The notes under the pieces were generated by a model. That model was not told the DNA's origin. It saw only the letters and a program-made list of their open reading frames with translations, and did no database searches. Shown here one piece after another: positions 23,106 to 33,763 of a stretch of 37,588 nucleotides of DNA. The stretch comes from a virus (Duplodnaviria; Heunggongvirae; Uroviricota; Caudoviricetes): positions 1 to 37,588 of IMG/VR virus record IMGVR_UViG_2563366827_000004; one strand, written 5' to 3'. The translations under genes were made by a program, and so were the position numbers. How positions within the stretch are numbered: the first letter of the stretch is position 1; each line of letters begins with the position of its first letter.

Positions 23106-23470
23106 TATTGGATTCTCTGCATCATGAGAAAGACAATCATGGCGGCTCGGAGGGGATTTTCATGTATAGCTCGCTTAGATTTACAGTAGGCCACACCGCG
23201 TGCACCCCACTCATCTTCATCGAGATTGATAATGCTAATCCTGTATTTTTCAATAATCGGCCATGCGTCTGCTGGGTTTGCGCATGGGTTAAAGGATCCG
23301 CGCTCAACTTCTACTTCAACTGCGTCTCCGTTTACAATGTCTCCCTCAAATGAGACAAACACCATATCGCCATTCTCACCTTCTTTGTAATCCGGTGATC
23401 CGTTATGAATGGCTTCGAATACCGCCACGTTAATTTCAAAATCACTTAACTGTGAATAATCCATTGTCAT
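23105..23470 (-). CDS. NinX-like protein
   Basis: 121 aa from [14 protein letters not shown]...; ATGA overlap with the ninE stop; sits where P22-type phages carry ninX. Confidence 0.5.
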
Positions 23471-23643
23471 TTCCTCGCACGATGTCTTAGCCACCGGATA
23501 TCCCACAGGTGAGCCGTGTAGTTGAAGGTTTTTACGTCAGATTCTTTTGGGATTGGCTTGCGTTTATTTCTGGAGCGTTTCGTTGGAAGGTATTTGCAGT
23601 TTTCGCAGATGATGTCGGTGATGCTTCGTCGCTGTCGTCTCAT
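23467..23643 (-). CDS. ninE: NinE
   Basis: [51 protein letters not shown]... matches recalled lambda NinE. Confidence 0.85.
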
Positions 23644-24167
23644 TCTGCCCTCCTGACGCCCTGCCCGATCGCCATCAATGCCGCTTTGGATACGGTAGTA
23701 AACATCCGTCGAGGACTGATGAACGGTCGCCAAATCAGCAGCATGGAGCCTTTGCTGTTTCCCTTCTTCTCCAGCCCTGTCGATGGTTCGATAAAATTAA
23801 TCCGTCCATCAGTGATAATGCGAACTTCGTCGACACTCTCCAGAGCCTTGCTGAACCATCCGACTGACATATCCTCTGGCACAAGCATAACTACCGTCTG
23901 TCGCTGTTGTATGCACTGCTCAGCGGCTTTATCCACCCACGGCCTGATATTGCTGTACGGTGGGTTATTCCAGATTGCACCGTGGCTTACCCACTCAGAA
24001 TTGAGCGCGTCGTCGGCCTCAGTTAGCCAGTGAGCACACAGAGCATTTTTGTCGCTCGCTGCCGAATCCAGCCAGAATCCAAACTCAATATCCAGTGCAT
24101 CAAAAAGCCAAAGCGGCGTTTGCCAGCAGTCCTTGTCGTGTGCTGGCGTATTTGATTTGATAGTCAT
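23640..24167 (-). CDS. Phage Dam-like DNA N6-adenine methyltransferase (orphan)
   Basis: 175 aa from [25 protein letters not shown]...; NPPY catalytic motif ([10 protein letters not shown]); no adjacent restriction gene. Confidence 0.7.
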
Positions 24168-24604
24168 GCAGCCCGATCTCCCCATCGCGCTTTCCACTCC
24201 AGAGCCAGTCGCGCTTCGTCTGACCACTTAACGCCACGCTCTGTACCGAATGCCTGTATAAGCTCTAATAGCTCCGCAAATTCGCTTACACGCATCCTGC
24301 TGGTTGACTGGCCTATTACCACAAAGCCATTCCCGGCAAGGTTAGGAACAACATCCTGCTGCTTTAATGCTGCGGTAAACACACACTTCCAGCTTTCTGC
24401 ATCCAGCCAGCGACCATGCCATTCAACCTGACGAGAGACGTCACCTAAGCAGGCCCATAGCTTCCTGTTTTGGTCTAAGCTGCGGTTGCGTTCCTGAATG
24501 GTTACTACGATTGGTTTGGTTGGGTCTGGAAGAATTTGCTGTACTGCGTGAATAGCGTTTTGCTGATGTGCTGGAGATCGAATTTCAAAGGTTAGTTTTT
24601 TCAT
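24164..24604 (-). CDS. ninB: NinB (Orf) recombination mediator
   Basis: From MKKLTFEIRSPAHQQNAIHAVQQILPDPTKPIVV..., near-identical to recalled lambda NinB. Confidence 0.9.
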   Translation of the reverse strand: MKKLTFEIRSPAHQQNAIHAVQQILPDPTKPIVVTIQERNRSLDQNRKLWACLGDVSRQVEWHGRWLDAESWKCVFTAALKQQDVVPNLAGNGFVVIGQSTSRMRVSEFAELLELIQAFGTERGVKWSDEARLALEWKARWGDRAA

Positions 24605-24620: not shown

Positions 24621-24652
24621 AAATAAAAAGGCCTGCGATTACCAGCAGGCCT
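24621..24652 (-). terminator. tR2-like intrinsic terminator between helicase gene and nin region
   Basis: Minus-strand hairpin AGGCCUGC-N8-GCAGGCCU (8-bp perfect stem) followed by UUUUUAUUU. Confidence 0.6.
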
Positions 24653-29469: not shown

Positions 29470-29769
29470 ATGACAGTAGTCATTACATATCTGGCTGACG
29501 ATAACGCCAGAAATCGCCGCAGAGCACGCAGACAGGCTCAACGTGAACAGGCGATGCAAGAACAGCGACTGGCGCGAAAAATTGCGCTAAAGCTCTCTGG
29601 TTGCGTCAGAGCGGATAAAGCAGCATCACTCGGAATCCTTCGCTGCAAGAAGGCAGATGAAGTCGAGAGTAAACAGAATCGTATTTACTACCGCAAGCCA
29701 CGCAGTGAAATGGGTGTGACTTGTGTTGGTCGCCAGAAAATGAAATTAGGCAGCAAACCACTTATTTGA
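29470..29769 (+). CDS. N: N-like antitermination protein
   Basis: 99 aa, first gene after pL/nutL, GGAGG RBS, N-terminal arginine-rich motif DNARNRRRARRQAQREQ. Confidence 0.7.
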   Translation: MTVVITYLADDNARNRRRARRQAQREQAMQEQRLARKIALKLSGCVRADKAASLGILRCKKADEVESKQNRIYYRKPRSEMGVTCVGRQKMKLGSKPLI

Positions 29770-29780
29770 GAGGAATTAAT

Positions 29781-30404
29781 ATGTCATCAATCCGCTTAAC
29801 TACGAGAATGAAAGAGGAAATCGCTCGTAACGCTTTAATTAAGTCTGGGGTTTTCACTGAACTTGAAGAAGTAACAAAGTTAAAGAACCAGCTTGCACTT
29901 GACGCCAGAGTTATTGCGTTTGGCGGTAAAAAGAAAACTGAGGAAGTGGATCGGTTATCATCCAAGTTAGCAGCTATAAGTGAAGAACTTGAGAAGATGG
30001 GATGTTCATTTTACTCATGCGATGTTCGTTCTGCTTCGATTTATCTGACTGTATCTGGAAGAAGGGTTGGCTGGCATTCATACGGAAAAGACGGCAACGG
30101 TGAAGATATATTGCTCCCCACCCCAGAAAAAGATAAATGCATGTTTGACGCAGAACACGAAATAACAAAAAGGTTTGATGAAATCTGCGCATTGCAACAA
30201 AAACTTGAAGCCAAGAAAAAGGATATCGAATCAAATGTATGGGCTGCTTTGAACTCAGTCACAACAGTTAAGCGACTTATTGAAGTTTGGCCTGAAAGCA
30301 AAGAATTGCTACCAAAAGAAGCAGATAAAGCAAGTACAGCACTTCCTGCTTTACGGGTAGAAGATTTGAATAAGATGATTGGACTTCCTTCCGAGGCCGC
30401 ATAG
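29781..30404 (+). CDS. Hypothetical 207-aa protein co-transcribed with N
   Basis: ATG at 29781 with GAGAGGAA RBS, 12 bp after the N stop; soluble, no recognised motif. Confidence 0.7.
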   Translation: MSSIRLTTRMKEEIARNALIKSGVFTELEEVTKLKNQLALDARVIAFGGKKKTEEVDRLSSKLAAISEELEKMGCSFYSCDVRSASIYLTVSGRRVGWHSYGKDGNGEDILLPTPEKDKCMFDAEHEITKRFDEICALQQKLEAKKKDIESNVWAALNSVTTVKRLIEVWPESKELLPKEADKASTALPALRVEDLNKMIGLPSEAA

Positions 30405-30576: not shown

Positions 30577-31545
30577 ATGAGTGAAGTAACAGATTTAGTT
30601 GTTATTGAAAAAGCAAATGCAATGACTGTATTTCAGTCTGCCGACCAGATTGAAGAAATCCTTCAAAAGGTTGAACGTGAAGTTATGTCCTTTGTGCCTG
30701 ATATCACAACGGCAAAGGGCAGAAAGGAGATCGCTTCTCTGGCGTATAAAGTTGCGCAAACGAAAACATATCTCGATGGTCTTGGAAAAGACCTTGTTGC
30801 TGAACTGAAGGAAATTCCAAAGCTAATTGATGCCAACCGCAAGACAGTGCGTGATCGCCTTGATGAGCTGAAAGCCAAGGCACGCCAGCCTCTTACTGAT
30901 TATGAGGAGGAGCAGGCGCGGATTAAAGCCGAAGAAGAGGCTAAGGCAGCAGCTGAAGCTCTCGCAAAGCAAATTGAGTCTGACCATGAAATAGCGATTT
31001 TGATGGATCGCGAATTTGACCGCCAAAGAGAAGAGGCAAGACTCAAAGCGGAGCAGGAAAAGCGAGAGCATGAAGAACGCTTAAAAAGAGAAGCTGAAGA
31101 GAAAGCCAGAGCAGAAGCCGAAGCAAAGGCAAAAGCCGAAATTGAAGCAGCAGCAAGGCGAGAAGCAGAGGCTAAGGCCGCAGCGGAACGTGCAGAGCGT
31201 GAACGCATTGAAGCCGAGCAACGAGCACAGCGCGAAGCAAAAGAGGCAGCAGAACGGGCTGAAAGAGAAAAGCAGGCGGCAATTGAAGCAGAACGCCGAA
31301 AAGCACAGGAGGAGGCAGAACGAATCCGGCGCGAGGCTGAAGCAAAAGAGCAAGCCAGAATAGCAGAAGAAAAAAGAATCAAGGACGAAGAAGAGCGTAG
31401 AGCAAAGGATAAAGCTCACCGGAAAGAAGTAAATAACAAAATACTTGCTGACCTTATCAAGGTTGGCGCATCAGAAGATGTTGCTAAAAATATCATAACA
31501 GCCATCGTAAAAGGCGAAGTATTCGCAACAAAAATAACCTACTAA
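30577..31545 (+). CDS. Hypothetical protein with a long E/R/K/A-rich helical repeat region
   Basis: 322 aa; about 150 central residues are almost only E, A, R, K, Q; globular-looking N- and C-termini; GGAGG RBS. Confidence 0.7.
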   Translation: MSEVTDLVVIEKANAMTVFQSADQIEEILQKVEREVMSFVPDITTAKGRKEIASLAYKVAQTKTYLDGLGKDLVAELKEIPKLIDANRKTVRDRLDELKAKARQPLTDYEEEQARIKAEEEAKAAAEALAKQIESDHEIAILMDREFDRQREEARLKAEQEKREHEERLKREAEEKARAEAEAKAKAEIEAAARREAEAKAAAERAERERIEAEQRAQREAKEAAERAEREKQAAIEAERRKAQEEAERIRREAEAKEQARIAEEKRIKDEEERRAKDKAHRKEVNNKILADLIKVGASEDVAKNIITAIVKGEVFATKITY

Positions 31546-33283: not shown

Positions 33284-33763
33284 ATGAAAATCTGCTCAAG
33301 ATGCCATCAACAGAAGGAAGAAAAGGACTTTCAAATCAGAAGAGCATCCAGAGATGGATTAACTGCCGCTTGCCGGGCTTGCCTGGCTGAATACGACAAA
33401 GAGCGCGCGGGATTGCCACATCGAGTATCAGCAAGGAGAGAATATCAATCATCGGAACGCGGCAGAGAACGGTGTAACGCAGCCAAAAAGCGGTTCATTC
33501 AGAGCAACCCATGGAAAAGAAAAGCCCACATCATCGTGGGTAATTTTTTGCGCGACGGTAAGCTAATCCGACCACCACAATGTGAGTGCTGCGGATCAGA
33601 ATGTAAACCACAGGCGCACCACTGCGACTACAGCAAACCAACCGATGTGATGTGGCTCTGCAAGTCATGTCATGTCGAGTGGCACAAACATAACAAACCT
33701 ATCTACCCAGACGAGGAACCAGTAACTCTCCCCTTCCCTCGTCACGCTATTCACGCAATTTAA
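33284..33763 (+). CDS. HNH endonuclease-like zinc-binding protein
   Basis: 159 aa; N-terminal Cys pairs and C-terminal CECCGSE...AHHCDY...LCKSCHVEWH, an HNH-type motif. Confidence 0.6.
   Translation: MKICSRCHQQKEEKDFQIRRASRDGLTAACRACLAEYDKERAGLPHRVSARREYQSSERGRERCNAAKKRFIQSNPWKRKAHIIVGNFLRDGKLIRPPQCECCGSECKPQAHHCDYSKPTDVMWLCKSCHVEWHKHNKPIYPDEEPVTLPFPRHAIHAI

Follow-up and report, generated by a model that had tools for sequence, protein, structure and literature searches.

The Dam methyltransferase of phage VT-2, an orthologue of the enzyme considered here, was reportedly cloned and characterised in 2001. This enzyme, M.EcoVT2Dam (prophage VT2-Sa), is entered in REBASE with GATC as its target, citing Radlinska and Bujnicki 2001 (PMC6602927), and Radlinska's group named VT-2 among the phage enzymes with demonstrated Dam-like (Gm6ATC) activity (PMC7139368). 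T1 and HP1 are listed there as well, with GATC specificity taken from the literature, and among the phage enzymes listed only T2 and T4 Dam are homologues of cellular Dam (PMC7139368). The literature also treats the copy carried by Phi24B as a putative Dam (PMC3342100).

We analysed 37,588 nucleotides of viral DNA (the window), the whole of which is a P22-like phage or prophage nearest to IME10 and CUS-3. Between ninB and ninE it carries a gene whose product is identical at 173 of 174 positions to VT2-Sakai orf32 (BAA84315 / NP_050531). orf32 is flanked by the 'nin 146' and 'nin 60' homologues; no other ORF of VT2-Sakai is annotated as methylase-like, and on this ground we equate orf32 with M.EcoVT2Dam. 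VT2-Sakai orf4 (299 aa, early-left region) was considered as a second methyltransferase and rejected, being DUF551. The window protein and M.EcoVT2Dam share the length of 175 aa, the position between ninB and ninE and the overlapping start, and they differ in the last residue and by a conservative exchange at residue 79 (D79 in the window, E79 in VT2-Sakai), a column that is freely variable among homologues. The two phages are of different kinds, the window phage being a P22-like podovirus of the IME10 / CUS-3 type while VT2-Sakai is an Stx phage. Phi24B encodes a protein with 100% identity to that of VT2-Sakai and 99% to that of HK97, and 99%-identical copies are also found in many Stx phages. 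The window gene thus very probably encodes a small, single-domain, AdoMet-dependent N6-adenine methyltransferase, orthologous to M.EcoVT2Dam and expressed as a delayed-early cistron with no restriction partner.

The methyltransferase gene and its distribution

The features on which the analysis rests are as follows (coordinates in the window).

23467..23643, minus strand: ninE, its ATG overlapping the methyltransferase stop
23640..24167, minus strand: methyltransferase CDS, 175 aa (PF05869 / TIGR01712; M.EcoVT2Dam orthologue), from profiles and sequence comparison
23955..23966, minus strand: NPPY, residues 68-71, catalytic motif IV of amino-methyltransferases, read from the sequence and invariant in alignments
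24054..24074, minus strand: WLDSAAS, residues 32-38, presumed equivalent of AdoMet-binding motif I from motif order; low model confidence
24114..24125, minus strand: WQTP, residues 15-18, putatively motif X-like, before motif I as in the gamma-class
24164..24604, minus strand: ninB (Orf-family recombination mediator), its stop overlapping the methyltransferase ATG
24178..24183, minus strand: GGGGAG, Shine-Dalgarno sequence of the methyltransferase read from the sequence, 10 nt 5' of the ATG and within the 3' end of ninB
24629..24652, minus strand: strong terminator-like G+C-rich hairpin with a T run, between the DnaB-like P gene and ninB

The longest methyltransferase ORF in the window's ORF list runs from a GTG start over 23640..24227 on the minus strand (195 aa), and an in-frame ATG at 24167-24165 gives the 175-aa product. 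The original prediction had placed a 175-aa gene at 23640-24167 between ninB and ninE and had preferred the start overlapping the ninB stop to that lying 20 codons upstream. Its coordinates and neighbours proved correct, as the flanking genes match Pfam NinB (PF05772, E 1e-54) and NinE (PF05322, E 7e-44). The short start is likewise backed by annotation and by homologues: the annotation of VT2-Sakai and that made by PGAP for E. coli 214-4 (one RefSeq genome inspected) both call the same 528-nt CDS, the homologues of other genera start there too or at most 4 residues earlier in the alignment, and the HMM matches open at residue 2-4 of the 175-aa form. In the E. coli 214-4 prophage this CDS (528 nt, 175 aa) has the same start and lies between genes that PGAP names 'recombination protein NinB' and 'NinE family protein'.

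Both ends of the gene overlap a neighbour as ATGA. The ninB TGA (24166-24164) overlaps the methyltransferase ATG, the minus-strand junction reading ...GGGGAGATCGGGCTGCATGACT, and the methyltransferase TGA (23642-23640) overlaps the ninE ATG (23643-23641), with the 3' junction ...AGGAGGGCAGAATGAGA. An AGGAGG is found 5 nt upstream of the ninE ATG. A GATC at 24175-24178, in the spacer between the methyltransferase Shine-Dalgarno sequence and the ATG, is probably there by chance.

Of 5,426 complete E. coli genomes, 1,566 (roughly 29%) contain the 528-nt gene with at least 95% identity, with E. coli copies annotated 'phage N-6-adenine-methyltransferase' among the matches listed. A tblastn search brought up 1,901 phage records with a relative, of which 244 show at least 95% identity and include Stx1- and Stx2-converting phages; T1-like, Klebsiella, Vibrio and Lactococcus phages have more distant members. 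In the protein database there are clusters of thousands of near-identical proteins, and Pectobacterium, Serratia, Edwardsiella, Providencia, Yersinia and Photorhabdus, among others, have homologues whose identity falls to about 60%. This is a known, routinely annotated small phage methyltransferase gene with a characterised 99%-identical orthologue, and nothing here is new; given its annotation by PGAP, its frequency in complete E. coli genomes and that orthologue, it carries little weight as a discovery.

Family, fold and target recognition

The protein matches Pfam PF05869 "DNA N-6-adenine-methyltransferase (Dam)" over profile positions 1-167 of 169 (E 9.2e-65, 217.9 bits against a cut-off of 28.1) and the NCBIfam equivalog TIGR01712 "phage N-6-adenine-methyltransferase" over positions 1-165 of 165 (265 bits against a cut-off of 97.05). 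As judged by these profiles the match is far beyond chance, both scores exceeding the curated cut-offs with the models aligned along their full length. The protein is a single domain of 175 aa in a family of about 170-180 aa, and it has the invariant residues common to T1, HP1 and VT-2. It also matches PHROG 111 'DNA methyltransferase' (E 2e-87). The prediction of an N6-adenine methyltransferase-family gene with an NPPY motif is therefore confirmed by PF05869, by TIGR01712 and by the motif as read from the sequence. The papers found by a full-text literature search for 'PF05869' were mainly eukaryotic (oomycete, chlorovirus), with none on the phage enzyme.

The NPPY motif is invariant in 19 homologues from different genera as well as in T1 and HP1 Dam, and it conforms to the (D/N/S)PP(Y/F/W) pattern of motif IV. 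Also invariant across the 19 homologues are T17-P18 (within W15-x-T-P, where W15 is nearly invariant), L33-D34-x-A36, N68-P-P-Y-S72, M94-L95, D99, S101, W104, G121-R122, F125, K139-G140 and I145-W-R-P148. No FxGxG is present in the methyltransferase; a conserved LDxAA(S/D) occupies residues 33-38, where motif I is expected and where the model pLDDT is below 50 (residues 33-37). Within WLDSAAS, residues L33, D34 and A36 are invariant in close homologues, and L33, D34 and A37 are common to T1 and HP1 Dam. The order TP, LDxAA, NPPY is that of the gamma-class, and we infer the labels X, I and IV for these three elements from the sequence.

T1 Dam (32% identity to the window protein) and HP1 orf13 (35%) are both PF05869 members, and 38 alignment columns, NPPYS included, are invariant across the window protein, T1, HP1 and VT2-Sakai. 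T1 and HP1 Dam share with the window protein D13, W15, TP, LD, NPPYS, ML, D99, S101, WF, R122 and K139, and they too are orphan genes. They differ in genomic context, however, and T1 Dam is longer by about 45 aa at its N-terminus and carries an internal insertion. E. coli Dam, T4 Dam and DpnM (alpha-class, Pfam MethyltransfD12) have in common with the window protein the reported GATC target, the formation of m6A from AdoMet and a (D/N)PPY motif. The window protein nevertheless falls outside the cellular Dam family, which is marked by Dam/DpnM sequence and a recognition domain between motifs I and IV.

The AlphaFold2 model, computed from a shallow alignment, was of moderate confidence (pLDDT 73.5, pTM 0.75), with low confidence around residues 33-37, and its predicted fold is the alpha/beta methyltransferase fold (class I Rossmann). 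Fold comparison of the model gave the following values.

PCIF1: 8.2
M.TaqI: 7.9
CamA: 7.6
M.BseCI: 7.4
Type I HsdM: about 7
E. coli Dam: 6.5
DpnM: 5.7
T4 Dam: 5.6

The model predicts a Rossmann methyltransferase core and nothing more, nearest to gamma-class N6-adenine enzymes such as M.TaqI and not to cellular Dam. Identity to the gamma-class enzymes is only 10-16%, and a PDB sequence search with the methyltransferase returned no meaningful match (best E 0.59, SdiA). M.TaqI, CamA, M.BseCI and Type I HsdM are 320-610 aa long with large recognition domains or subunits, whereas the window protein corresponds to the catalytic core alone. On this modelled structure it is a catalytic core without a separate recognition domain, and it resembles cellular Dam in function without being related to it. 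The description "Dam-like" in the original prediction thus holds for the reported function, methylation of GATC, but not for ancestry, since the nearest fold is gamma-class. As an orthologue of M.EcoVT2Dam, the enzyme almost certainly targets the adenine of GATC. The conserved segment 121-140 is a candidate GATC reader, and the target adenine would be flipped into the NPPY pocket for catalysis. It may be that PF05869 cores read GATC by a mechanism unseen in known structures, for which the conserved hairpin 121-140 and dimerisation are candidates, or that the lambdoid role is a specific counter-defence or recombination protection tied to the place beside ninB; we regard this as rather unlikely.

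The gene was predicted to have no restriction partner nearby, and this is what we found. The best PADLOC models for the methyltransferase are 'orphan methyltransferase', and no restriction enzyme was detected among the window ORFs scanned with Pfam, PHROG and PADLOC; PADLOC found no defence-system matches in the other window ORFs. The neighbours are NinB, NinE, NinX, NinF, NinG, NinH and a phosphatase, an arrangement that does not correspond to a Type II restriction-modification system. The sole endonuclease-like ORF, 33284-33763 (+), lies 9 kb off in the leftward pL recombination module. This 159-aa ORF, between SSB and a P22-type anti-RecBCD gene, has no Pfam match and belongs to PHROG 2340 'endonuclease' (E 2e-47); its N-terminal part gives weak matches to Lar-like restriction-alleviation and endonuclease VII PHROGs. 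No counterpart of it is annotated in VT2-Sakai, despite the same methyltransferase being present there.

Expression and role of the methyltransferase

Upstream of ninB are a DnaB-like P gene and the O replication protein gene, and further up a CII-like activator and an S24/HTH repressor. Downstream of ninE are NinX, NinF, NinG, NinH, a calcineurin-like phosphatase and then antiterminator Q. The hairpin in front of ninB (24652-24629) has the arms AGGCCTGC...GCAGGCCT, followed by TTTTATTT, and it occupies the position of lambda tR2, to which we take it to be equivalent. The methyltransferase gene would then be one cistron of a delayed-early rightward pR operon, in the order cro-cII-O-P, tR2-like terminator, ninB-methyltransferase-ninE-ninX-ninF-ninG-ninH-phosphatase-Q. 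The ATGA overlaps would couple its translation to that of ninB upstream and ninE downstream, and N antitermination through the terminator would have the enzyme made mainly after infection or induction. Since the gene lies in a delayed-early pR operon behind a tR2-like terminator and has ATGA overlaps, the methyltransferase is probably made mainly in lytic growth and not from the repressed prophage.

The benefit to the phage may be in topping up GATC methylation on fast-replicating phage DNA when host Dam is limiting. Progeny would then be shielded from restriction systems whose target is unmethylated GATC, and recombining phage DNA would be spared MutH-directed nicking. The window contains 85 GATC sites against 167 +/- 10 expected from dinucleotide-preserving shuffles, a depletion of about two-fold. 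The Markov expectation is 198 (O/E 0.43), making GATC the second most depleted 4-bp palindrome after CTAG. With GATC depleted about two-fold and a Dam already supplied by enterobacterial hosts, the gene would bring no obvious selective advantage. GATC depletion in prophages and enterobacterial phages has been described before, citing Henaut et al. 1996 (PMC6602927). The phage thus both avoids GATC and encodes a predicted GATC methyltransferase. CTAG is depleted further than GATC, with 9 sites observed and 35.5 expected in the whole window.

A different role would be for the enzyme to act mainly in the lysogen, where it would add to host Dam and thereby make lysogeny more stable or change host gene expression. 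A screen of lysogen cultures for expressed genes picked up the Phi24B gene, and its authors proposed that it might supplement host Dam (PMC3342100), which is required for stable 933W lysogeny (Murphy et al. 2008, as cited in PMC3342100). However, spontaneously induced cells are always present in lysogen cultures, and expression of the Phi24B gene changed significantly upon induction (PMC3342100). The window gene, moreover, lies downstream of pR and a tR2-like terminator in a repressor-controlled delayed-early operon, and in Stx lysogens host Dam methylates 99.9% of GATC sites whether the gene is present or absent, leaving little to add (PMC6602927). The expected lytic expression and the near-complete methylation by host Dam therefore weaken a lysogen role, which we consider unlikely, and on the same two grounds the earlier suggestion that the gene modulates host expression in lysogens is at best weakly borne out.

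The absence of a separate target-recognition domain from the modelled protein speaks for a different or relaxed target, such as some other phage orphan adenine methyltransferases have. Relaxed-specificity phage adenine methyltransferases do exist, namely Hia5 and Hin1523, but the Hia5-type enzymes are related to Dam, DpnM and T4Dam and are not PF05869 proteins (PMC3299994). We had considered Hia5 as a member of the same family and rejected it, as Hia5, Hin1523 and Nma1821 are DPPY/FxGxG enzymes akin to E. coli Dam, DpnM and T4Dam (PMC3299994). The window protein is, furthermore, 99% identical to an enzyme reported to be GATC-specific, and SMRT sequencing of strains with this gene revealed no additional m6A motif (PMC6602927); a target other than GATC is very improbable. 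That the gene is an inactive remnant, or a miscalled CDS with an antisense ORF as the true gene, is barely credible. A 174-aa antisense ORF does exist at 23509..24033 (+), and this is all that speaks for it; as a real gene it was rejected, having no Pfam match. The methyltransferase, in contrast, is full length with every family-invariant residue intact, and its conservation in the aligned enterobacterial homologues extends down to 59-79% identity.

Other open reading frames in the window

Two further ORFs were noted in the course of the analysis. A 322-aa ORF at 30577-31545 (+) belongs to the early-left operon; neither Pfam nor PADLOC gave a match for it, and it falls only in PHROGs 1376, 21365 and 17211, all of unknown function. 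Just after the N-like gene, a 227-aa ORF at 29721-30404 (+) matches PF18757 Nmad5 'nucleotide modification associated domain 5' (E 8e-71), although it sits in a lambdoid phage without an evident base-hypermodification pathway. It belongs to PHROG 1965 (function unknown) and is 95-99% identical in 75 phage records, lambdoid and Stx phages among them. Its distant relatives in other phages, at about 26-32% identity, include one annotated '5-hmdU DNA kinase domain protein'.
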